Shown: positions 16,069 to 59,876, counted from the stretch's first letter. The stretch: 64,000 nt of DNA from a virus (IMGVR_UViG_3300031998_000053:1-64000); one strand, 5' to 3'. Notes: generated by a model from the letters alone, not told the origin. Translations and numbers: made by a program.

Positions 16069-16671
16069 ATGAGAAAAAAATCACTGCTTTTCGGTTTCTT
16101 GTGTTGCTATATCATAGCAGCCCTATCCTCGTGTTCTGCTACTCAGACTACCATTGACCACTCAGAGAGTCACCACATAGATAGCAGCTATGTGCAGATG
16201 CAGTTGCAGCAGTTGGTCAGTCAGCAGCAGGCCCGTTACGACTCTCTGATGCGTGTGGTGCAGCAGCGTGACTCGATTTCACAGAATATCAATGAGCAGG
16301 AGCGTGAGCACATTACCGAAACGGTTACGTCGTGGATTGACTCGTTGGGACGCAAGGTGACTCAGGAGGCCCGTACCATCGACCGCCAGCGTGACCGATC
16401 AGAGGAACTGCGCCAGCAGCGTATCATCAATGAGCAGGAGCAACGCATCCAGTCGTGTCAGGAGCGTATAGACTCGCTCTATAATCTCTTACTCGAAAAG
16501 ACGGCTCTGGAAGTAAACGACACTACCAACTATCACAAAGAGGTTGTAAAGCCGGCACACACGCCATCGTTCCTGCAACGTGTGCATGACTTCCTGACTA
16601 CCCTTGTCAACGTCATCGTCTTTGCCGCTATCTTCGCCTTTATCATTCGCTGGAAACGCCGTAAGTCGTAA
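16069..16671 (+). CDS. Lipoprotein with coiled coil and C-terminal TM helix (spanin-like)
   Basis: Signal peptide with LSSC lipobox; C-terminal LVNVIVFAAIFAFII-RWKRRK. Confidence 0.6.
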   Translation: MRKKSLLFGFLCCYIIAALSSCSATQTTIDHSESHHIDSSYVQMQLQQLVSQQQARYDSLMRVVQQRDSISQNINEQEREHITETVTSWIDSLGRKVTQEARTIDRQRDRSEELRQQRIINEQEQRIQSCQERIDSLYNLLLEKTALEVNDTTNYHKEVVKPAHTPSFLQRVHDFLTTLVNVIVFAAIFAFIIRWKRRKS

Positions 16672-17651
16672 GATACTCCCTACACCTGAAGCCTTTTCGT
16701 GGCTCAAACTCTTCAAAGGAATGAGCTACGAAATGGGCTTTTTTGTTGACCCATCCGGCCATGTCCTTTTGCCATTGCGGAATGATGTGGTGTGGGTTGT
16801 TGGGATCACGGTAGGGCTGTGCATGTGGATAGACATAGCGGCCTTGATGCGAGGCCCGCGTTTCTTGTGTACGATGCCACCAATAGGTGATGCGCTCGTA
16901 GCACTCCCTGAAGTCTGAGGTGAGCATGGTGTATAGGAAGTATTGCCCTGTGAAGCCGTAGCGGTTGATCATATTCATGGCTCGCTCACATTCTGCTATC
17001 TGTCCGTGTGTGTCACAGCCGAAGCGGATGCGGTTGTTATCGAGCCACTTCACTTTTGCCAGCAGCTGTGCTATCTCATCCGTTACCAGTCGTGCATCGA
17101 GGGCCTGATTGAAGTCCACTCGGTAGCCTCTTTCTATAATCTTTTGCAGCTGCTGTATGCAGTATTCGCCAGCAGCCAGAATATTGTTATCCATCAGCAC
17201 TAACTTACGACGGCCCTCAATGGCTATTTCGTCCACATCCATATATGGCCGGATGGCTCCCTCTTTCTTGGGAACCACACACCAACGGCATTTGTTAGGA
17301 CAGCCGCGAGTCAGGAAACCGTAGGCCGTATCTTTCGGGATGTTAGGATAGATGGAGTAATCGGGTTGCAAACGGTCTATTTCGTCGGGCAACTGGCTTA
17401 GAGGATCATACCCCGTGCCTCCCTTGATGATTTTGTCTGCATCGTAGATGTAAGTATCGTCTGGGGAAAAGTTAAACACCTTCGACATATACACAATGTC
17501 GTAGTGTTCCATGGGGCTTGCCCATGAGATTTGCCCCCCCCCTATTACGCCAGTATCTCGCAATCTTAGCGAGTGCGAGATTGGGGTAAATCGTGGCTCC
17601 CCATTTCTTTTTCTTGGCGTGTCCGTCCACGTCCACAAGTCCTATTTTCAT
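16643..17651 (-). CDS. Radical SAM protein, frameshifted at a G9 tract (in frame at G8)
   Basis: N-terminus MKIGLVDVDGH...YPNLALAKIARYWRNRGG joins QISWASP...TRGCPNKCRWC only if one G is removed at 17534-17542. Confidence 0.85.
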
Positions 17652-17653
17652 AT

Positions 17654-17729
17654 ATTAAGCATGTTTGAACATTCTTATTTTGCAGAAATCTGTCACATTA
17701 AGCATGTTTGAAACTTCTTATTTTACAGA
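17654..17729. repeat. 33-bp imperfect direct repeat between the PAPS-reductase-like and radical SAM genes
   Basis: ATTAAGCATGTTTGAA..TTCTTATTTT.CAGA at 17654 and 17697. Confidence 0.8.
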
Positions 17730-18828
17730 TACCCGTCAAATTCTAATTCATACTGGAGGAAACGCTCGGCGTACCATCGTTTGTATGACATGCCACTGAT
17801 CCACCAGTCGTAGATGTTTTCGGCTATTTCGTGCTCTTGCTCATCAGTCAAGCCGTCAGACGATGAGCTGGAAGAAAACCCGCGTTTTCCCTTTCCAATG
17901 TGTCGGGTCTGGGTGCAGGATGTACCCGTAATCGTCGATTTTCTTCTTTGGATAGCGGTTTGAAGTTGGTTCCAATACCGTACCACAGGGTTTCCGTTGG
18001 TAAGAATTTTGAGAAATACCCCCCCATGTCGTATAGATATGATGGCTTTTATCCAGTTGCGTCTAACATGGGGCCATCGTTCATTCTCTATGCGTTTTTG
18101 GCGTGGGTTGCTCATCGGGCACCCGATGCAGCCTATACGATGAAAGCCCTGGTCGTAGAGTTCGCAGTGTGGAACTCTTACCACGTCATTCAGGAACTTC
18201 CATACATCACGCTCCGTCCAGTTGATGATAGGTGATATCAGCAGACTCTCTTTGCCGCTGATGCAGCCAATGGTGGTTTCTTCGGTAGCATTGGTGATAT
18301 TGATGCCTTTTGCCTTGCGGTACTCATCCAGGCCGTCTAAGGTGCCGCTGTATTTTCGGCTGTCAATCTCTACTTCATTGCGTTTCTTGCGTCGGCTGCT
18401 CTCCTGCCTCCTGATGCCGATGAGCGTCACCTTACCGGCTCCCGCATGTTCTTTGTATTCCTCACAGCACCAACGTACTTTCTTTGTTGGTAGCAGCTGC
18501 TTGCGCTCTGCCACATGATAGATGCTATCCTTGGGCTTTATCAGTTCCACTTCTGGATAGTGCTTCCTGACGAAGCGGATCACCTCTGGCGCATCTACTG
18601 AAGTCAGATTCATGTGTCCCTCGAAGCGTACACCGGCCAACTGTGCAATATGATAGAGGGTCTGACTGTCTTTTCCTCCGCTGAAAGCAAGGAAATACCC
18701 CCCCTATTATCGTAGGCCAGAGCCAGCTTCTCGGCTCTCTGCAAAAGATTGATGGAATACTCCATCTTCCTTCGCAGGCCCTTACTGGCTCTTGCATACG
18801 CTTCCTCTAATGTGATGTCTATTTTCAT
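17723..18828 (-). CDS. PAPS-reductase-family protein, frameshifted at a G7 tract (in frame at G8); second G7 tract near the C-terminus
   Basis: MKIDITL...YDNRGG + YFLAFSGGKDS (PP-loop) joined by +1 G at 18698-18704; RWCC, GIRRQES, RIGCIGCP motifs. Confidence 0.85.
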
Positions 18829-18829
18829 A

Positions 18830-19072
18830 TCAATTCTTACCTTTACTCTGTTGTGCCATGGCCATCAATTTACGCTCTTCGTCGGTGGTGGTGTCGAGCG
18901 TGATTTGTTTGAAGTCTGGGTATTTCTCCCATATCAGATCAGAGGCTTCAATAGCCTTTGATACGGTGTCCTTTATCAAGTCCTGAAATCCGTCCAGGTT
19001 CTTAATCTCGCTGGTCTCAGGTTCAATGCGGAAGGTTCTGTCATTGATGCCCTGTGCTAATATAATTTTCAT
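18830..19072 (-). CDS. Hypothetical protein
   Basis: 80 aa ORF in operon. Confidence 0.65.
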   Translation of the reverse strand: MKIILAQGINDRTFRIEPETSEIKNLDGFQDLIKDTVSKAIEASDLIWEKYPDFKQITLDTTTDEERKLMAMAQQSKGKN

Positions 19073-19099
19073 AATTTAATGAATATATGAATTGATGAT

Positions 19100-19695
19100 T
19101 TAATTAAACCATTTGATTACTGTGTCACCATGATAGCCTTTTTCCCAGACAAACCAGGCGTATGCAACGGCACTGCCTTTGACTGAAGCAAAGTCACCGT
19201 TGGGCGCACATAGCAGACGTGAGCTGCTGACCCATACCCGTGCCGGCGGTTGTGTCTTGAACAGGTGGCGACGCCCTTTGCCTTCAAGGAATGTGAGTTT
19301 GAGGAACATGCACACCTTCTTTCCTTCAGGAATGATAGCCAGTGCTTTTTCCACAAACTGCTGTGCGCAGGCATAGGGTGGGTTGGTGACGATGTTTCCG
19401 TCCCATTCCTGATTGTCGATGGCCAGGAAGTCGGCCACTTCGCCAAAGCCTCTGTCGATGATGTCGCGTGAAGTGACAAAATACCCCCCCCCCCGATAAG
19501 TACCTTGGAGATATGGCCCTCTCCACATGCCGGTTCCAGGATGGGACCGTCGAACTTTTCCAGCTTCAGCAGCCACTCTGTTGCCTTTGGCTCGGTGGCG
19601 TAGTAGTCCTGTGCCACTCGCTCACTCTCTGCATGGTTGCTGGCACTGATGCCTTTGAATACGGAGGCATTGCCTCCAGTCCAGTCTTTCTTCAT
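19100..19695 (-). CDS. Adenine DNA methyltransferase, frameshifted at a G11 tract (in frame at G9/G12)
   Basis: DYYAT..ILEPACGEG in one frame, IVTNPPY..AYAWFVW in another; junction at 19484-19494. Confidence 0.85.
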
Positions 19696-20505
19696 ATCTC
19701 GAAATCTAATGTTAGCTGTCTGCTTGCTTCTCTGATTCGTTTTTCGGCAACCTTGAAATACTTGGGGTCTTTCTCAATGCCGATATACTGTCTTTTCTCC
19801 ATGATGGCCGCTACACAGGTGGTGCCGCTTCCCATCGTATTGTCTAAAATTACCCCCCCCCATTTGGCTATAAGTCCTTATCAGGTAGCGTAGCAGATCC
19901 ACGGGCTTTTGTGTTGGATGGAACACAGTGGTCTCATGCTCTTTCTGAATATGGATGATGCTCTGAGGAAATTTCTCGTTTGGTCGGGTAGGGGCCACCT
20001 TGCGTATTTGCTTATCGTAGTCATACGTTCTGCCGGTCTTGAACTGTCCGTAACAGTTGTTAGTCCTGGGGTGCTCCAACTTTCCCTGAGAATGGTTTGG
20101 CTCTCCGATGCCCATCTGAGGGTTAAAGACAGGTAACTGCTTATAGAACACACAAATATCCTCATGGCAGCGCATGGGCATACGGTTGGCATTCAGAAAG
20201 CCGGTGCCGCGTCCTTTATCCCATATCAGATTGTATCTCCAGAGCTTCCTATTGCTTTGCATGAGGTCGCTGGTAAACATTCCCTGGGCAAAGAGTATAA
20301 TTGCACCATTGGGCTTAATAATGCGCTCATATTGCGCCCAAAGTGGCTGGAATGGAATCATGCGGTCCCATTGCGCATTAGGGTTGTCTTTGTGAAGCAC
20401 TTGGTATGGTAGATCGCAGATGATGGCATCAATGCTTTCGTCTGCTATCCCTGTCATCACGTCCAGGCAGTCGCCTAAGTATATGTTGTTTGGCTCTAAG
20501 TTCAT
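19692..20505 (-). CDS. Beta-class N4/N6 DNA methyltransferase, frameshifted at a G9 tract (in frame at G8)
   Basis: DLPY, HPTQKPV; motif I VILDNTMGSGTT is reached only by removing one G at 19853-19861; the restored stop overlaps the next ATG (ATGA). Confidence 0.9.
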
Positions 20506-40761: not shown

Positions 40762-41913
40762 ATGAAATTTAGTGTTTCCTCCCGTGAGTTGCTGCGCATC
40801 CTGAAGGCCACTGGTGCAGTCATTCTTCGTAAGAACAGCCTTCCTATTCTGGCCGACCACCTCTTCACCCGTGATGGCGATAAATTCTTCATTACTGGCT
40901 CTTCACAGGAAAATTCGTTGACGATGCCTATTGGCATTACACTCGACAATGGTAGCGACTTCCAGCCGTTCTGTCTGTTGGCTGTAGATGTTATCCCGCT
41001 GCTGGGTGCTCTGCCTGAACAGCCGATAACGGTAGAAGTGGATATGAGCAACCACATTGCTAAGATCATCTATCAGAGTGGCCAGGTGTCGGTGCCTGTT
41101 GAAGACAGTGCCGAATATCCGCGTGTGTCCGATGTAAAGGAGCCAAAGACTTCTTTCGACATCGAGGCCAATATTTTCTTCCCTGCTGTGAAAGCTGCCA
41201 ACGGTTGTACGGCTATTGACAGTACGCTACGCCCTCAGATGTCTGCTGTTGCCCTTGACGTGCAGGATGAGGGTGTGGTATTTGTTGGCTCTGATGGTCA
41301 CTCGCTCTATAAGTATTCCTATCAGCATGGCGCACCGTTCTTGACAGGTAGTAAGGTGGTTATCCTGATTCCAAACACCATTGCAGGACAGCTTCAGGCT
41401 CCCTTTGCCGGTGTTGAGACGCTGACCATCCAGCATGACGGTAAGCATGTATGCCTGAAGGCTGGTGATATCACCTTTACCATTCGTGACATCGAGCAGA
41501 AGTACCCTAACTATAACTCTGTCATTCCAAAGAACAGTCCCTATCATGCCACCCTGCCCGTGGCCGCTCTTGCTGGTGCCGTGAAGCGTGTGCAACTGAT
41601 GGCCAGTGATGCGTCAAACATGGTGAAGCTCTCCAAGGAAGGTATGTTCCTGAACCTGTCGGCTGAAGACTACGACTTCTCGAAGACGGCATCAGAGAAC
41701 CTGGTGCTGGCAGAGGTGGATAATCCGCTGACCATCCCAGATGGCTTTGCTATCGGCTTCAAGGCTTCGTCATTGCTGATGCTCCTGGGCAATATCTCTA
41801 CCGACAATGTGACGTTGCAGCTGTCTGAACCCTCTCGCGCTATTCTGGTCCTGGAGGATGCTCCTAACAGTGCCCTCGTGGAATTATTGATGCCCATGCA
41901 GCTGAATGCCTAA
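40762..41913 (+). CDS. dnaN: DNA polymerase III beta sliding clamp
   Basis: SLPILAD, GSDGHSL, YPNYNSVIP, IGFKAS, LLMPM. Confidence 0.93.
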   Translation: MKFSVSSRELLRILKATGAVILRKNSLPILADHLFTRDGDKFFITGSSQENSLTMPIGITLDNGSDFQPFCLLAVDVIPLLGALPEQPITVEVDMSNHIAKIIYQSGQVSVPVEDSAEYPRVSDVKEPKTSFDIEANIFFPAVKAANGCTAIDSTLRPQMSAVALDVQDEGVVFVGSDGHSLYKYSYQHGAPFLTGSKVVILIPNTIAGQLQAPFAGVETLTIQHDGKHVCLKAGDITFTIRDIEQKYPNYNSVIPKNSPYHATLPVAALAGAVKRVQLMASDASNMVKLSKEGMFLNLSAEDYDFSKTASENLVLAEVDNPLTIPDGFAIGFKASSLLMLLGNISTDNVTLQLSEPSRAILVLEDAPNSALVELLMPMQLNA

Positions 41914-42238
41914 CGCTATGAAGTCAATCTGTCAATGTTTCTATCAGACGGTAGGCCATACCTTCTACTACATCTTTAATGATGGCACCGTGCGCTCTAC
42001 GCGCAATGTCCTGTCAGATCATAAGACATGGAAGGTGATAGCCTCTTACAATGGTAAGGGCTACCGTCGCATCCGCATAGATGGTAAGACGTTCAAGGTA
42101 CATCGTCTTGTGGCCACGGCCTTTGTGCCTAACCCAGATAATCTGCCTTACGTTCTTCATATTGATGGTGATCGTGAGAATAACCACTACACAAACTTAA
42201 AATGGTCAGCAACGCAGAGCAACCATGAAGTTAAGTAG
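41906..42238 (+). CDS. HNH endonuclease (HNH_3-like)
   Basis: VHRLVATAFVPNPDNLPYVLHIDGDRENNHYTNLKW. Confidence 0.85.
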   Translation: MPNAMKSICQCFYQTVGHTFYYIFNDGTVRSTRNVLSDHKTWKVIASYNGKGYRRIRIDGKTFKVHRLVATAFVPNPDNLPYVLHIDGDRENNHYTNLKWSATQSNHEVK

Positions 42239-42545
42239 AGTATTGCACCATCACAACCGGCATGGTGGCTTGTGCCACAACTCACCTCGCCTGCATCGTG
42301 TCATCCGTAATGTCTGTATCACTGCTGGTGATTGTGGTGGGTGGTATCATCCCATCCACCCCTCAGACATAGGGCTGAATATCCAGCGCATCCTCTCCGT
42401 GGATCCTTTCGACCTTTATACGTCACTCCCCGCACCCCAAGGCAAGGATAGCAATTCATACATTCGTGGTGACATCCGCTTTCGTCTCTCCCTGCTCCAG
42501 CAGCTACTAATGTTAATTCTAATCGTGTTATTATCTGTTTTATGA
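42225..42545 (+). CDS. Hypothetical protein with hydrophobic C-terminus
   Basis: Coupled ORF between HNH and dut. Confidence 0.5.
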
Positions 42546-42985
42546 GAAAGTTAAAAGTAAAAGTAATCAATAAGTCTCACCATCCGCTGCCAGCCTATGC
42601 TACTGCACTTTCTGCTGGCATGGATCTCCGTGCTAACCTTGATGAGCCTATCACGTTGGAACCGCTGTGTCGTAAGCTGGTGCCAACAGGCTTGTTTATC
42701 GCTTTGCCTCCTGGCTATGAGGCACAGGTACGTCCCCGCTCCGGCCTTGCTCTGAAGCATGGTATCACCTGCATCAATACACCTGGTACTGTCGATGCCG
42801 ACTACCGAGGCGAAGTTGGCGTGTTGCTCGTGAATCTCGGTAATACTCCGTTTATCATCAATGATGGTGAACGTATCGCTCAGATGGTCGTTGCCCGTCA
42901 CGAACAGGTGGCTTTTGAGTCTGTTGATGTCCTGGATGAAACAGAACGTGGTGATGGTGGCTATGGTCATTCAGGTGTGAAGTAA
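42542..42985 (+). CDS. dut: dUTPase
   Basis: [36 protein letters not shown]. Confidence 0.97.
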
Positions 42986-42986
42986 G

Positions 42987-43138
42987 ATGGTAGCACAGTC
43001 CCCTATTGTCCTCGGTCAATATTCCCCGTCTCAGAATGGCATAGTGGTGTCGCCTTTTGGCCCATCACTATGTGTTTCTGGGGGGGCAATGGCCATGATA
43101 CAGACAAACCAAAAATACTTATAGAGTATGACTTGTAG
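42987..43138 (+). CDS. TRD-like cassette 1, G7 tract = OFF (G8: ...SQNGIVVSPFGPSLCVSGGGNGHDTDKPKILIEYDL)
   Basis: Manual translation; tract 43080-43086; length 152 = 3n-1. Confidence 0.75.
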
Positions 43139-43288
43139 GCGTTCTGTTACGACAACTCTCATTAACCCTGACAGGGGGGGCAAATCGCTCGTACCATCAA
43201 GTATCAGTATTATAAAACCAGCCTGGCTAACTTTCTGCTGAAAACACAGCGCGGAGCAACCGGCGTATTGATAGAGTATGAATTTTAG
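43128..43288 (+). CDS. TRD-like cassette 2, G7 = OFF (G8: ...DRGGQIARTIKYQYYKTSLANF...GATGVLIEYEF)
   Basis: Tract 43174-43180; ATG embedded in the previous cassette's EYD codons. Confidence 0.75.
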
Positions 43289-43466
43289 AGTAACCAATGT
43301 GGGGAAACCCAAGCAGATTAGGGGGGGGCAAATCTACCCCGTCAATATTACTGTCGATGGCTGTGCCAGTACCATCGTGGCGCATTATGCACAGACTGGA
43401 CCTGCTAACATGATTTCTCTTGCTCATTATCCTAATACGGCTGTTTTGTTTGAACATGATCTATAA
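43278..43466 (+). CDS. TRD-like cassette 3, G8 = ON (...CASTIVAHY...AHYPNTAVLFEHDL)
   Basis: Tract 43321-43328 in frame. Confidence 0.75.
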   Translation: MNFRVTNVGKPKQIRGGQIYPVNITVDGCASTIVAHYAQTGPANMISLAHYPNTAVLFEHDL

Positions 43467-43635
43467 GGCAATAGGTTGGACTCGCTCTGCTTCTGGACGT
43501 GGTGATGTTACTCGTTACCATTTGAAGAATGTTTGCAATACCATCACCTCATTTTCAGGGGGGGGCATTGGCAAAGATTCCACAACAGGAATGTATAACA
43601 CCACTCCTTATATCTTAGTTGAGCACGAATTGTAA
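43456..43635 (+). CDS. TRD-like cassette 4, G8 = ON (...VCNTITSFSGGG...TPYILVEHEL)
   Basis: Tract 43558-43565 in frame. Confidence 0.75.
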   Translation: MIYKAIGWTRSASGRGDVTRYHLKNVCNTITSFSGGGIGKDSTTGMYNTTPYILVEHEL

Positions 43636-43646
43636 TAAGAAGAAAT

Positions 43647-45101
43647 ATGATTGCAAAGATTTATCCTGACAACCACCCTGAACTTCAGGGCAAAAAGGAT
43701 CCGAAGCACCCTGTGAGGTACTTCGACATCCGAAAACTCACCCCCCCCGAATGCTATACGCTCATGGGCGTTCCAGGCCCATACATCGACGTGCTGATGA
43801 GCACCGAACAGCGACCTTATACGGCTTTTGTCGGTGTTGATAATCAGTTAGCAGTTTTCGGACTTGAACCGACGGCAACGATGAAAGAAGTAGAGGAAGC
43901 CTACCGTGAGGCCCTGGAAAGTCTCGAAACTCCCGTTCCTGATGATGAAGAGCATGATGATGATGCCACCGTTTCCGAAGATGAAGACGATGCCGAAGAG
44001 ATTGCCCTTATGCGTCAGAACTACGAACTGGCTTACAACACTATTCTGAAAGCACCGACTGAAGAAAAGTTTGGTCCTGTGCAGATCATCAGTAATAGCA
44101 ACCATTATAAACTCGCTGGCAACTCCATTGTCTGTGATGTTTTGATGTATATCTATGAGGAAATTTTCTATCCTACTGGCCGTCGTTTGCCTGCCGAACA
44201 GCAGGATATGTTTTCACTGCCTCAGTTCCAGCTTTCCCGCGACTGGAAAAAGCACCCTCTGAAGCTCGTTACTTTGTGTTCTGGCTATGATTCGCAAGCG
44301 ATTGCTTTCGATATGTTGAAAGAGCGTTATCCTGATTTTGATTACAGATTGATGGCCTGGGCAGAGTTTGATCCTGAAAGTAAACGTGCCCTTGATGAGC
44401 AGCCTGCCGTTGTTGCTCATAACCTCCTTTTCCCAGACGCAAAAGACCTCAATCGTGGCGACATGACAAAGGCTGACTGGAGCAACCTTGCAGGTGAAGA
44501 AATCGACTTCCTGACTTATTCTACTCCATGTCAGAGTATTTCACAGGCTGGCAAACGAGAGGGCATCAAAAAAGGCTCTGGCACCCGTTCTGCTGTGCTA
44601 TGGCATACAGAGGATGCCGTAAAGGTGATGCGCCCAAAGATTCTTCTGCAAGAGAATGTCCGTGCGCTGATTAACAGCGTAAATATGCCCGACTTCCGCG
44701 AGTGGTGTCAACTGTTGGAAAAGCATGGATATATCAATTTCCTGGCACCGTCATTCCCGACACCATGGGGCGAGACGAAACGTGATAAGAAGACTATACC
44801 AGGCATTCTGAATAGTAAGCATTATGGTGTGCCGCAAAACCGTGAGCGTGTCTATATGATTTCTGTCCGTAAGGATGTGCTCGACGATACGCAATATGAG
44901 TTTCCGCGTCCATTCCCATTAGAAAAGTGTATTGCTGATATCCTGGAAGATAATGTTGATGAGCGTTTCTTCCTGAAGCCCGATTCAGTAATCAAGTTCC
45001 TTACTGTGAATGAGAGTGACCAGCAGGCTAAGATCTTCTATATCGTCACCGATCATAAACTCTCTGATGAAGAAATAGCAAAGGCCCGTGCCGGTCAATA
45101 G
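43647..45101 (+). CDS. Circularly permuted C5 cytosine DNA methyltransferase core (motifs IX-X before I-VIII); C8 tract in frame
   Basis: RKLTPPEC (IX), YKLAGNSIV (X), TLCSGYDS (I), STPCQSIS (IV), QENV (VI), PQNRERVY (VIII); C8 at 43741-43748. Confidence 0.9.
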   Translation: MIAKIYPDNHPELQGKKDPKHPVRYFDIRKLTPPECYTLMGVPGPYIDVLMSTEQRPYTAFVGVDNQLAVFGLEPTATMKEVEEAYREALESLETPVPDDEEHDDDATVSEDEDDAEEIALMRQNYELAYNTILKAPTEEKFGPVQIISNSNHYKLAGNSIVCDVLMYIYEEIFYPTGRRLPAEQQDMFSLPQFQLSRDWKKHPLKLVTLCSGYDSQAIAFDMLKERYPDFDYRLMAWAEFDPESKRALDEQPAVVAHNLLFPDAKDLNRGDMTKADWSNLAGEEIDFLTYSTPCQSISQAGKREGIKKGSGTRSAVLWHTEDAVKVMRPKILLQENVRALINSVNMPDFREWCQLLEKHGYINFLAPSFPTPWGETKRDKKTIPGILNSKHYGVPQNRERVYMISVRKDVLDDTQYEFPRPFPLEKCIADILEDNVDERFFLKPDSVIKFLTVNESDQQAKIFYIVTDHKLSDEEIAKARAGQ

Positions 45102-45103
45102 AT

Positions 45104-45316
45104 ATGATGTACTTGCGTGATAGAGACCCAGCCAGTTCCAATGACTCTGTGAGAGTATGCTCCAGTGTAAACCGTGACCTCGATTGCATCAGCTTTCGTG
45201 GTGCCCATGCTGACAGGAACTTTCATCAGGTCATAGAACTTGGCTCTTCTCGCGTCACGAATACAATAACGTCCGTTCAAAAAGATAACCTCGTATGGAT
45301 AGAGAGAATGATATAA
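45104..45316 (+). CDS. TRD-like cassette 5 (...TNTITSVQKDNLVWIERMI), no G tract
   Basis: NT(L/I)TSVQKDN motif typical of phage C5-MTase variable regions. Confidence 0.75.
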   Translation: MMYLRDRDPASSNDSVRVCSSVNRDLDCISFRGAHADRNFHQVIELGSSRVTNTITSVQKDNLVWIERMI

Positions 45317-45501
45317 AGACACAAGCTGCCACCGTGCCCGATGAGTCAGCAGCGGGTGTTCCTGTTGGAAAGCCGTTGGGTATTGTCCGTTACCCTCATG
45401 GCAAGTTTCGTGGTGGCATACGTCCGGCTGATATTCTCCCTCCATTGACTAATTCCGACTTTCAAAATAACAATTTTGTCATTATCGAATATGACCTCTA
45501 A
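45295..45501 (+). CDS. TRD-like cassette 6 (...RYPHGKFRGG...PPLTNSDFQNNNFVIIEYDL), no G tract
   Basis: Shared C-terminal tail. Confidence 0.7.
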   Translation: MDRENDIKTQAATVPDESAAGVPVGKPLGIVRYPHGKFRGGIRPADILPPLTNSDFQNNNFVIIEYDL

Positions 45502-45753
45502 ATCCGCTGTAAGGCACTATATCCCCATTCGTCCATTCCTCTCGACCGCTACGAGGGGGGGCAATTCGTGTTGCAAGTCAGACAGGCAACCGAACAGGGT
45601 TATATCGAGTGTGTCAGTGGTGGTTGTTTCGATATGGCCTACCCATCCTCTCAGCTTCGACGCTCCCGTGTCAAAGAGGATGGGCGTATTGCTTCCGTCC
45701 TGATGTCTGGTGAAACGTCTCAATGTGTGTTTATAGAATATGACTTTGATTAA
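45491..45753 (+). CDS. TRD-like cassette 7, G7 = OFF (G8: ...VRQATEQGYIEC..MAYPSSQLRRSRV...CVFIEYDFD)
   Basis: Tract 45555-45561; QATxxGY...YPxSxxRRxRV motif of phage C5-MTase variable regions. Confidence 0.8.
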
Positions 45754-45941
45754 GCTGTCGCATACAACCTCCGCACCTCCAAAACCCTTACAGGGGGGGG
45801 GTACTTCTGCCCATTAACACAGCATCCGGCGGTATCTGTTGCACCCTTAACACCCGTTACGACGGTATGCAACTCCCCGAAGACATCCTTAGTCTCGCAC
45901 ATTATCCCAAGACGGTCATCCTTATTGAGCACTATCTATGA
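45740..45941 (+). CDS. TRD-like cassette 8, G9 = OFF (G8: ...ICCTLNTRYDG...LAHYPKTVILIEHYL)
   Basis: Tract 45793-45801; resembles cassette 3 (SLAHYP). Confidence 0.75.
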
Positions 45942-46056
45942 GGGTAGAATCAATGTTTCGCAGGATGGTTTAATTATTTCTCCTTTTGGTATTTCTCCAA
46001 CTCATACCGCTGGGCATGGTAATTGCCCAAAAATCCTAATAGAGTACGATTTGTAG
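45925..46056 (+). CDS. TRD-like cassette 9 (TTG start; ...SQDGLIISPFGISPTHTAGHGNCPKILIEYDL)
   Basis: Resembles cassette 1; start codon uncertain. Confidence 0.65.
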   Translation: MSTIYEGRINVSQDGLIISPFGISPTHTAGHGNCPKILIEYDL

Positions 46057-46064
46057 CTACTGTG

Positions 46065-46094
46065 CCCGCTGGTTATCCAGCGGGTTTTCTCTTT
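46065..46094 (+). terminator. Intrinsic terminator closing the replication/MTase operon
   Basis: CCCGCTGG-TTAT-CCAGCGGG followed by TTTTCTCTTT. Confidence 0.7.
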
Positions 46095-55202: not shown

Positions 55203-55648
55203 ATGGAAAAAACATTGAATTACCCCCCCCCCTGGAAGAGCTGAAGACGCTCACGGAGGAAGAGGTCAGAGCATGGTTTGGAAAAGTCCGTATCTGGCGT
55301 GATGAGCACATCGACGAATTGCGTCATCAACAAGAGACGGCTATCTTTAACATCAGGACTGAGCAAAAGGTGGAACGTAACCGTATTATCTGCCTGATTG
55401 ATCTGAAACGCTCTCAACTGCCGACTGGTGGCAATACAGATGAGCGTGAGCGAACACTGACACTGCGTAACGAGATTCACAATCTCGATTACGAAATGCA
55501 GACGAATGACATCAACAGCCGTAAAAAAATTGCGGATATCAAGTATGAGTCTAAACGGGCCATCAATGACATTCAGCGTCAATGGGAAACCGCTACTGGA
55601 ACCTTGAAACAAGCCCTCGCTTTCGTCTGCAATAAGACTGAGGACTAA
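55203..55648 (+). CDS. Coiled-coil protein, frameshifted at a C10 tract (in frame at C8/C11)
   Basis: MEKTLNYPP + LEELKTLTEEEVRAWF...LRHQQETAIF joined at 55223-55232. Confidence 0.7.
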
Positions 55649-59072: not shown

Positions 59073-59630
59073 ATGTCTGAGACTAAAAAACATTATCGTG
59101 TCTATATGGCTCTGGACCTCGTGACAGAGGATGAGGGCAGAACATTGGCCATGGTGAACGTCATGCGTATGTCGAATGAACCGGCACCATTGCCTATGAT
59201 GACACAGTTCATGGGTGGCATGTCAAACCTGGCTCCAAAGGTGATGGTGGTGCAGCAGCCTACGCATGGCAAAACAAACCAGCGTACAGGTGTTGATCCT
59301 GACCTTGATTGTGATGACTTTGAACGTGGGGAGCCTGAAGGCTATTGTGACGGCATGGGGCATTACCATTGTGATGAATGTAAGTGGCGTAGTCAGGAGT
59401 CCATTAACCAAAAGCACGAGGACTTCATGCGTCATCAGAACCATAAAAAGGAATGGCCGAAGATCAAAGCCATTGTTATTGATTCCGGCGAAGAGGTAAT
59501 GGTCGATGACCATGCTATTGATTTCTTTGGAACCAGTTATTATAACATGTGGCATAATACAGCGAATGGTACGACATACCATGACGATGAACTGGAATTT
59601 ATTGACGAAAGACTGCAAAAAACGACATGA
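59073..59630 (+). CDS. Hypothetical protein with C..CDGMGHY.C..C motif
   Basis: 185 aa ORF. Confidence 0.65.
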   Translation: MSETKKHYRVYMALDLVTEDEGRTLAMVNVMRMSNEPAPLPMMTQFMGGMSNLAPKVMVVQQPTHGKTNQRTGVDPDLDCDDFERGEPEGYCDGMGHYHCDECKWRSQESINQKHEDFMRHQNHKKEWPKIKAIVIDSGEEVMVDDHAIDFFGTSYYNMWHNTANGTTYHDDELEFIDERLQKTT

Positions 59631-59867
59631 CTATGAATCAGTATAATGTATCGGGGGGGGGTGAAATCGCCCTTCAGAGGGAATGGACTAAGCCGTACTG
59701 CAATGCTCTTTAAGATAGCAACATTGGCAGGTCATAAGTTGACTGTTCCCGAAATGAATAAATTTAAGAATGTCAATCCTCGCAGTCTTGAACGTGTATA
59801 TAACGAAGTAATCCGCATGGGTGATTCTGGTAATGCCATGTTTGCCCTGCGATTGATACTGAAATAA
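59627..59867 (+). CDS. Small protein with G9 tract (G8 restores frame from the coupled ATG at 59627)
   Basis: Tract 59653-59661; an alternative ATG at 59646 is in frame at G9. Confidence 0.55.
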
Positions 59868-59876
59868 AAAAACGAA

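Follow-up and report, generated by a model that had tools for sequence, protein, structure and literature searches.

The closest described relatives of the locus analyzed here are the multispecific cytosine-C5 (C5) DNA methyltransferases of Bacillus phages, for which tandem target-recognition domains (TRDs) within one protein have been described (PMC8936443). Circularly permuted C5 enzymes of type H, such as M.BssHII, have been described as well, and fragments of split C5 methyltransferases that are cut near the TRD are reported to reassemble into an active enzyme (PMC5944983). For phase-variable Type I and Type III systems, slipped-strand mispairing at homopolymers has been described as the switch of expression (PMC12707154). 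In this study, we analyzed a stretch of 64,000 nucleotides (nt) of DNA from a rumen phage (IMGVR_UViG_3300031998_000053:1-64000, hereafter the window), which comes from an IMG/VR virus record of 75,965 bp with a CheckV completeness of 72%. Positions 42987-46056 of the window hold a module made up of four small open reading frames (ORFs), the gene of a C5 methyltransferase of 484 amino acids (aa) and five further small ORFs, all on the + strand. To our knowledge, every C5 methyltransferase described so far carries its specificity within the catalytic polypeptide itself or in a single fixed partner half.

Our analyses suggested that the module may encode the separated subunits of a multispecific phage C5 DNA methyltransferase, with a permuted catalytic core and nine small, separately encoded TRD cassettes (C1-C9) sharing a C-terminal tail. 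The anatomical part of this reading, which comprises the permuted core, the free cassettes, the tail as docking element and the frame-setting homopolymer tracts, has good support from the comparisons and from modelling. The functional part, which comprises trans binding, distinct specificities, reversible switching and bet-hedging against restriction, is the most likely account of that anatomy; we infer from it the binding and the specificities, the switching inside a lineage and the advantage gained. For comparison, we used 16 viral loci fetched via the core together with L018, a scaffold binned with a Prevotellaceae metagenome-assembled genome (MAG).

Compared with the described systems, the module combines features that otherwise occur apart. 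Like M.SPRI, M.phi3TI, M.rho11sI and M.H2I, it is encoded by a phage and has one core that would serve several TRD modules, here nine cassettes. The TRDs of those four enzymes measure ~40-60 aa, read one target each and lie in one polypeptide between motifs VIII and IX. Unlike them, each TRD here has its own ORF and its own stop, the core is permuted and most of the TRDs bear a homopolymer tract; because every tail is closed by a stop and successive cassettes lie in different frames, there are no tandem TRDs in one polypeptide. The type H enzymes (M.(phi)BssHII, M.BssHII, M.Alw26I, M2.Eco31I, M.Esp3I, and M2.BsaI) share with our core the placement of motifs IX-X before motifs I-VIII. They carry their TRD at the N-terminus of the same protein, an arrangement that is absent from the window and present in the related loci L010-L013, L016, and L005. 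Unlike in type H, the N-terminal TRD of the window is cut off by TAA TAA, eight further TRDs stand free on both sides of the core, and, past motif VIII, the first half of the variable region remains part of the core. The module also resembles M.AquI alpha/beta and the engineered fragments of M.SssI, M.MpeI, and M.HhaI in being a C5 enzyme in pieces, and M.EcoHK31I is likewise a two-protein enzyme. Unlike M.AquI and the engineered splits, which consist of two fixed halves, the module has the recognition half of the TRD freed at both of its ends and present as a library of alternatives. With Type I HsdS and phasevarions it would share a specificity subunit apart from the catalytic subunit and on/off switching by homopolymers. 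Unlike the module, Type I and Type III systems are cellular and methylate N6-adenine, and HsdS consists of two TRDs and coiled coils. Both hallmarks of phase-variable systems were found, namely a coding homopolymer that sets the frame and length polymorphism between conserved flanks (contigs X3 and X7, loci L001 and L018, and the tract of the core). Because a TRD in the same polypeptide, the defining feature of each of the C5 families compared, is missing here, the module falls outside every described C5 subtype. A literature search in full texts, with most subscription journals, REBASE and supplements outside its scope, returned neither free-standing or poly-G-switched TRD genes beside a C5 methyltransferase nor an account of any C5 enzyme whose specificity subunit stands apart.

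The core (43647-45101, + strand) is a circularly permuted C5 methyltransferase, residues 267-452 of which match Pfam PF00145 (E 3.7e-37). Its layout runs from motif IX (RxLTxxE; here RKLTPPEC, residues 29-36) through an acidic insert to motif X (GNS[IV]; here AGNSIV, residues 157-162), motifs I-VIII and the first half of the variable region; both flanks of the small domain are retained, motif IX N-terminally and this half of the variable region C-terminally. In an alignment with M.MpeI (4dkj), core residues 270-440 correspond to residues 111-272, and core residues 145-175 (HYKLAGNSIV) correspond to residues 360-390; the latter alignment is below significance when taken alone, and we took this segment as motif X. 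The core further contains LCSGYDSQ, STPCQS, QENV, and QNRERVY, which are invariant or nearly so in 34 homologues and which we take to be motifs I, IV (PCQ), VI (ENV), and VIII (QxRxR), respectively. An earlier note on this DNA, made by a model from the sequence alone, had read the order as IX-X followed by I-VIII, and both the PF00145 match and the M.MpeI alignment bear this out. It had also seen no TRD in the core, which is right for the recognition half and has to be amended for the first half of the variable region, since the latter is kept in the C-terminus of the core (residues ~417-484, EFPRPF...DILEDNVDERFFL...). The core ends 66 residues past EFPRPF, and a T-[LIV]-T loop and a GGG loop are absent from that segment. 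There is no complete TRD between motifs VIII and IX in this polypeptide, and the DNA-reading (recognition) half of the TRD is the only part detached from the core. Core relatives are numerous, with 2750 proteins at E <= 0.001 among 8000 scored candidates.

Several features of the core vary among its relatives. The insert between motifs IX and X is acidic and partly helical (43780-44070, core residues ~46-140); its length differs among homologues, and it is missing in a clade with a core of ~370 aa. Four homologues (P0057, P0073, P0091, and P0092) have an extra insert of 50-100 aa before motif IV. In addition, tblastn matches to the core in phages of the Bacillus cereus group (CM1, Deep Blue, BCP01, and others; H8-H19) begin at core residue 148, so that motif X is included ahead of motif I, and coincide with two neighbouring methyltransferase annotations; judged from these matches, the Bacillus loci may represent another permuted or tandem arrangement.

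The nine cassettes are 43-87 aa long and share the ending hhhE[YH][DE]h-stop, their tails being ILIEYDL, VLIEYEF, VLFEHDL, ILVEHEL, VWIERMI, VIIEYDL, VFIEYDFD, ILIEHYL, and ILIEYDL, with a stop directly after each. Searching the six frames of the window with a regular expression that combines tail and stop gave nine matches, all within 43115-46056, in comparison with a mean of 0.21 and a maximum of 2 in 200 mononucleotide shuffles. All nine ORFs with the shared tail, four upstream and five downstream of the core, lie where the earlier note had put them. All cassettes are on the + strand, and they represent seven families. Upstream of the core, C1 (42987-43138, family 3, a paralogue of C9) contains a G7 run at 43080-43086 that leaves it out of frame and would need to be G8: the frame of its ATG reads ...YSPSQNGIVVSPFGPSLCVSGG and the frame of its tail reads ...GGNGHDTDKPKILIEYDL before the stop. 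C2 (43128-43288, family 8), whose ATG lies within the C1 tail, is likewise out of frame, with G7 at 43174-43180 where G8 is needed. C3 (43278-43466, family 1, 62 aa, a paralogue of C8) and C4 (43456-43635, family 4, 59 aa) are in frame with G8 at 43321-43328 and 43558-43565, respectively, and C4 ends in TAA TAA, 8 nt 5' of the core ATG. Downstream of the core, C5 (45104-45316, family 2, the NTITSVQKDN type, 70 aa) and C6 (45295-45501, family 9, 68 aa) have no tract, and the C5 start lies 2 nt past the core stop. C7 (45491-45753, family 5) has G7 at 45555-45561 and C8 (45740-45941, family 1) has G9 at 45793-45801; both are out of frame and need G8. C9 (45925-46056, family 3, 43 aa) has no tract and a putative TTG start. 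At five junctions (those of C2, C3, C4, C7, and C8), the ATG of the next cassette sits in the Tyr/His-Asp codons of the preceding tail (TATGA), 10 nt before the end of the preceding stop for C2, C3, C4, and C7 and 13 nt before it for C8. Judged from the sequence, such start/stop overlaps are the layout of translationally coupled genes.

Two further candidates for how the cassettes might be joined or exchanged were considered and rejected. Reassignment or read-through of stop codons linking the cassettes is contradicted by the use of TAG, TAA, and TGA alike and by the next cassette lying in another frame. Inversion or switching of the shufflon type is contradicted by the lack of significant inverted repeats, the longest shared repeat being a 23-nt stretch that codes for the tail.

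By sequence comparison, the cassettes are TRD modules homologous to TRDs that stand in cis in other enzymes, as the earlier reading of them as TRD-like had proposed; the homology concerns C9, C5, C6, and C8, and for the C4 type there is in addition a fusion to the core. First, cassettes match C5 enzymes of Muribaculaceae. C9 shares 65% identity across 37 aa with one cis TRD of the Paramuribaculum enzyme (E 6e-16), and C5, C6, and C8 match residues 222-246 (E 4e-6), 230-287 (E 8e-5), and 142-162 (E 5e-5), respectively, of ORF2 of the Lepagella enzyme, all these E-values referring to a database of four proteins. In Lepagella muris (L021), Paramuribaculum intestinale DSM 100749 (L022) and other Muribaculaceae/Bacteroides loci (L023-L025), a C5 enzyme of canonical order is encoded in two ORFs; according to Pfam, ORF1 of this split holds motifs I-VIII and TRDs, and ORF2 holds TRDs and motifs IX-X. 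These enzymes, which look like two-part enzymes of the M.AquI kind, contain ~nine tandem TRDs, each ending in a hydrophobic strand and then Glu, Asn or similar, and they are possible cis comparators in cultured strains. Second, a HMMER search with C5 against 1.84 billion representatives returned 14 clusters, 11 of them of 57-98 aa and three of 229-329 aa. The three long proteins (P0154, P0156, and P0157; library-wide E 5e-5 to 3e-4) have 1-2 TRD copies of the C5 type before RIRKLTPRE and AGNSIV, and they match the C-terminal part of the PF00145 profile. Third, TRDs are fused to the core itself in relatives of the window. In L010-L013 and L016, the reading frame of the core is extended at its N-terminus by a TRD of the C4 type (MICKFVGWTR...CNTITS...), giving the order TRD-IX-X-I..VIII in a single ORF, and a different TRD type is fused there in L002, L003, L005, L006, and L008 and in P0002, P0003, P0028, and other proteins. 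In the window, L001, and L018, the C4-type TRD occupies the same genomic position, is ended by TAA TAA 8 nt before the core ATG, and no TRD is fused to the core, which has only an in-frame extension of eight codons upstream. We presume that C4 resembles the stretch of M.HhaI before motif IX. In addition, residues 28-80 of the L001 homologue of C7 weakly match positions 60-110 of phrog_16427 (E 0.0034), and core residues 24-48 weakly match positions 111-137 of the same family (E 3e-5). Because these two matches cover consecutive stretches, the tail of the cassette would abut the strand before motif IX in a cis family.

The two-ORF enzymes of L021-L025 have homopolymers of their own, with runs of G8-G12 and C8-C12; in L022, a C11 run shifts the frame past a TRD.

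The arrangement recurs among related phages, and its tract lengths vary, as the earlier note had proposed to check. ORFs with tail and stop lie beside the core in 15 of the 16 viral loci and in L018, and L015, a partial match, shows none. The core of L018 is 93% identical to that of the window and is accompanied by the same nine cassettes. In total, 112 tail ORFs were counted in 17 loci; they form 25 clusters including 12 singletons, a few of which are clearly spurious, and the ending of tail plus stop is kept in loci whose cores are down to 53% identical to the window core. For families 1, 3, 4, 7, and 12, the side of the core on which they lie, upstream or downstream, differs from phage to phage; the C5 type, present in 15 of 17 loci, is always 3' of the core. 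On this comparative evidence, the position of a cassette relative to the core does not appear to matter. The ratio of nonsynonymous to synonymous substitution rates (dN/dS) was 0.0-0.46 for cassettes (25 pairs, with three more pairs of the C3 family saturated at synonymous sites) and 0.05-0.09 for the core (7 pairs, with three more saturated); for example, it was 0.09 for C4 against L002 and 0.12 for C6 against L001. C4 has 21 homologues of 48-83 aa that are separate protein entries, all without a Pfam domain, and an alignment of 19 C4 sequences (A1) has 23 invariant positions. In L010-L013 and L016, whose cores are ~53% identical to that of the window, the arrays are without G runs and all 16 resolved cassettes are intact; the only G run in this clade lies upstream of the first cassette of L013. 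Taken together, these comparisons indicate that the cassettes are real genes under purifying selection. The module family is common in rumen and gut viromes. Among named phages we found no counterpart: blastn against a phage collection of 50,697 records returned matches over the dUTPase part of the query only (3 records), and in a protein search of the same collection none of 1070 matching records covered at least 80% of the core.

The homopolymers of the module behave as expected of frame switches in several respects. Because G8 is the in-frame length for all six cassette tracts, C1, C2, C7, and C8 are off and C3 and C4 are on, and frame arithmetic confirmed the states read earlier (off, off, on, on, off, off). 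A C8 run lies in frame within motif IX of the core (43741-43748); this run, too, had been noticed before, and our comparison adds that its length varies, being C8 in the window and in L001-L003, C9 in L006, and C7 in L018, with non-homopolymer codons in L005 and L008. The core run would accordingly be a seventh switch, to judge from these alleles. Such runs are in excess in the window, where GGGGGGG has 32 matches in 14 runs of G or C as compared with 3.77 +/- 2.6 in 100 dinucleotide-preserving shuffles, none of which reached 32. Tract lengths were compared with assembled contigs from other studies that are 95-99% identical to the window, stretches that X3 does not cover being left aside. Over 867 nt, the X3 contig and the window are separated by 2 substitutions and one indel, and the indel turns the G7 of C2 into G8; X7 has C4 at G7 and C8 at G8. 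Within the module, 10 indel rows were listed, eight of which fall on the seven runs, the others being an in-frame deletion of 3 nt and an intergenic insertion of A; every frame-changing indel within the coding sequence of the module sits on a tract. In L001, whose core is 96% identical, C7 is at G8 and forms an intact ORF of 87 aa. In L018, the cassette tracts are G9, G9, G7, G7, G7, and G8, the C8 cassette is in frame, and the C7 run of the core breaks motif IX. In the near clade, the frame state could be resolved for 41 cassettes with a tract, and these divide almost evenly into 21 in frame and 20 out of frame. Most families need G8 to be in frame, whereas some cassette families of the relatives need G9. 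Relatives without a tract write the same Gly-Gly-Gly as GGT GGT GGT (L009) or GGT GGA GGT (L010-L013), so the homopolymer is a derived codon choice, as in bacterial contingency loci.

Prediction of a complex between the core (34-row alignment A2) and C4 (the 19-row alignment A1), the one of the nine cassettes that was modelled, gave a median score of 0.79 (runs 0.80, 0.55, and 0.79), and the best of three controls scored 0.16. Of 80 solved complexes, 58 reach the mark for this score, as do 2 of 110 mismatched pairs; with the custom alignments employed here, these counts are a rough guide. At least 35% of the contacts are common to the runs, with a predicted local distance difference test (pLDDT) value of at least 37 for the partner. 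The contacts of lowest error place the C4 tail (residues 52-57, YILVEH) antiparallel to core residues 24-31 (RYFDIRKL), beside motif IX. The earlier note had proposed such a check by complex prediction. C4 residues 24-36 (the NTITS loop) contact core residues 391-400 (motif VIII) and 150-159 (motif X), and core residues 425-455 also take part in the interface. In the model, core and cassette are complementary and together resemble a whole enzyme, and the predicted complex has the look that would be expected of a TRD cut at the hairpin turn before motif IX. When the core was predicted alone with AlphaFold2, its mean pLDDT was 62.4, and the segments of low confidence (residues 26-31, 149-161, 368-400, and 414-458) cover most of the contact stretches; given the differing method and the shallow alignment, this match is weak evidence for the predicted interface.

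Such a structure suggests how the module might work. The recognition half of the TRD would be supplied by any of the nine mini-proteins, which carry T-[LIV]-T, GGG and similar loops and which would be translated from their own starts, most of these overlapping the previous stop. The hydrophobic terminal strand of a cassette, which corresponds to the strand ahead of motif IX in ordinary enzymes and has a free C-terminus, would pair antiparallel with core residues 24-31, as in the model of C4. Across the broken turn, this pairing would restore the hairpin by which the TRD of an ordinary enzyme is connected to motif IX. Each core molecule would take up a single cassette at a time, the cassettes competing for a single docking site, and an infected cell would contain a mixture of holoenzymes with one specificity per expressed cassette. 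Slippage at the G and C runs would shift the frame and turn each specificity, and the whole enzyme, heritably on or off. Finally, many methylated motifs could hedge against host restriction enzymes, and marks that are switched off may avoid methylation-dependent restriction or the cost of unneeded marks. A trans mechanism fits the observation that the same families occur on either side of the core and that, at one genomic position, the TRD stands free in some relatives but is part of the core polypeptide in another clade. We hold this mechanism as a whole, i.e., exchangeable trans-acting TRD subunits with phase-variable expression, with moderate confidence. The fully specified holoenzyme, in which a permuted core takes up exchangeable subunits of 43-87 aa by strand docking at motif IX, independent poly-G switches control the subunits and a poly-C run in the core acts as master switch, is a proposition that we consider evenly balanced.

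Several observations weigh against the mechanism and should be set beside the evidence for it. First, the homology of the cassettes to TRDs is uneven: for C1, C2, C3, C4, and C7, nothing significant turned up among the four Muribaculaceae proteins; a Pfam search with the nine cassette proteins (E up to 10) gave no true hit and one chance hit (E 0.11); a PDB profile search with the C4 alignment returned chance matches only (antibodies and similar); PHROGs gave one weak match for eight cassette proteins; and a search for longer proteins containing C4 found none, which is weak evidence. Failure of profile searches is usual for TRDs. Second, the docking prediction covers one cassette of nine, one of its runs reached only 0.55, and the partner pLDDT of 37 makes the fold of the cassette itself uncertain there; the score may also echo the model's memory of intact C5 methyltransferases with a TRD in cis. 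Third, where a TRD is fused in cis to the core, as in relatives, trans cassettes would have to compete with it. Fourth, the start codon of C9 (TTG) is uncertain, and 43 of 110 cassette rows were left unresolved by the heuristic, mostly the first cassette of an array, which has no defined previous boundary. Fifth, the tract states are skewed. Of the 20 out-of-frame tracts, 17 lack exactly one base, and the C1 family is out of frame in eight of nine near-clade loci, both of which exceed the expectation under neutral switching. In run X5, one or two bases are missing at six of the seven tracts, that of C1 being the exception. We discount X5 as probably an under-call of homopolymers or a sequencing artefact. 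For the skew in general, deletion-biased slippage, selection for the off state, under-calling and decoding by transcriptional slippage are possible explanations.

This skew also speaks for an account that keeps the same subunits and does not treat the tracts as switches at the DNA level. The homopolymers would then be under-called, or the genotype would be one base short by design and decoded by slippage or frameshifting, and all cassettes would be made in set ratios. Such an account would explain why the shortfall is so often exactly one base, why the C1 family is G7 in six of nine near-clade loci and why X5 is short nearly throughout, and no heterogeneity within samples was seen, contigs being the sole data. 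We nevertheless regard it as unlikely. Lengths of 6, 7, 8, 9, and 10 occur at orthologous tracts, which is unlike a single designed length; 21 of 41 resolved tracts are in frame; the window consensus comes from a contig of word depth 417; and some lineages, such as L008, have mixed codons or a T interruption with the frame kept, which fits an escape from mutability.

The fused TRDs lend themselves to another account, in which the cassettes are mainly a silent store of TRDs that are recombined into an expression site at the N-terminus of the core, as in antigenic variation of the pilin type, and do not bind in trans. In addition to the in-frame fusion in many relatives, the occurrence of the same family on either side of the core in different phages and the 23-nt tail-coding repeat, which is common to five cassettes at 70-83% identity, speak for it. 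Yet the window, L001, and L018 have no fused TRD, and their enzyme would then be without any recognition half. Furthermore, the cassettes have their own starts overlapping the prior stop and a conserved stop directly past the tail, purifying selection acts on each in its own frame, and wherever a tract is absent all resolved cassettes are intact. The module also yielded no long repeats, no inverted repeats and no recombinase. We therefore consider a silent store improbable, more so than tracts that do not switch. Least probable by far is that the small ORFs are functionless, decayed fragments of one multi-TRD gene: four of the nine window cassettes are out of frame and Pfam recognizes none of them, but the tail and stop kept in 112 ORFs from 17 loci contradict the loss of tail conservation that the earlier note had named as fatal to its proposal, and together with dN/dS well below 1, intact cassettes throughout the tract-free clade and frame breaks confined to homopolymers they exclude decay for practical purposes.

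The gene order on the + strand is a DNA polymerase III beta-clamp homologue, an HNH endonuclease, dUTPase, the module, a hairpin and a tape-measure-like gene. Upstream, the border is the dUTPase gene (42542-42985, + strand; Pfam PF00692, E 6.6e-33), and an HNH endonuclease ORF (PF13392) and an unannotated ORF of 106 aa lie between the clamp gene and the dUTPase gene (41906-42545). Downstream, the border is a terminator-like hairpin on the + strand (46064-46085, with a T-rich tail to 46095) of nine pairs, seven of which are G-C, and 3' of it follows a tail tape-measure-like gene of 1897 aa. In runs X1 and X3, one contig each joins 42985 to 46064 and skips the whole 3.1-kb module, with 30 nt on the shorter side of the joint; the far end of this joint coincides with the terminator-like hairpin. 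With its 30-nt support, this is a hint, which suggests that related phages in the X1 and X3 samples are without the module or have a replacement at 42985/46064. With regard to the host, the binning of L018 is weak evidence for Prevotellaceae.

Homopolymers are also present elsewhere in the window. The remaining seven runs of G or C of at least seven bases include five in four genes for DNA modification or modification-like functions, and all four genes are split at a run. These genes occupy 16643-20505 on the minus strand, where the + strand has C runs at 17534 (C9), 18019 (C7), 18698 (C7), 19484 (C11), and 19853 (C9); they encode a radical-SAM-like protein, a PAPS-reductase-like protein (PF01507), a methyltransferase with an NPPY motif and an N6_N4 methyltransferase (PF01555). 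Four of the five runs visibly split the gene into two frames. From the homopolymer breaks in those four genes, it follows that the DNA-modification gene set may be stochastic or switchable. At 59628-59870, a G9 run at 59653 splits a small ORF, which reads MTMNQYNVSGGG and then continues in another frame for ~70 aa. A C10 run at 55223-55232 lies in no open frame among the three minus-strand frames translated there.

If the proposed mechanism is correct, the module would provide the first separate specificity subunit for a C5 enzyme, and cytosine methylation would be reprogrammable by swapping a peptide of ~50 aa. It would also explain the tandem TRDs that share a single catalytic site in multispecific enzymes, each TRD docking non-covalently in turn, and would make testable how one core uses several TRDs, a question open since the work on Bacillus phages in the 1980s-1990s. 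The split enzymes of cultured Muribaculaceae offer experimental access to related systems. For the phages themselves, a core with a switchable library of subunits would yield many methylation patterns from a single genome, and a phage could use the module to alter the methylation by which its DNA is shielded from host restriction. Phages, and not bacteria alone, would then use contingency loci to diversify epigenetic marks.

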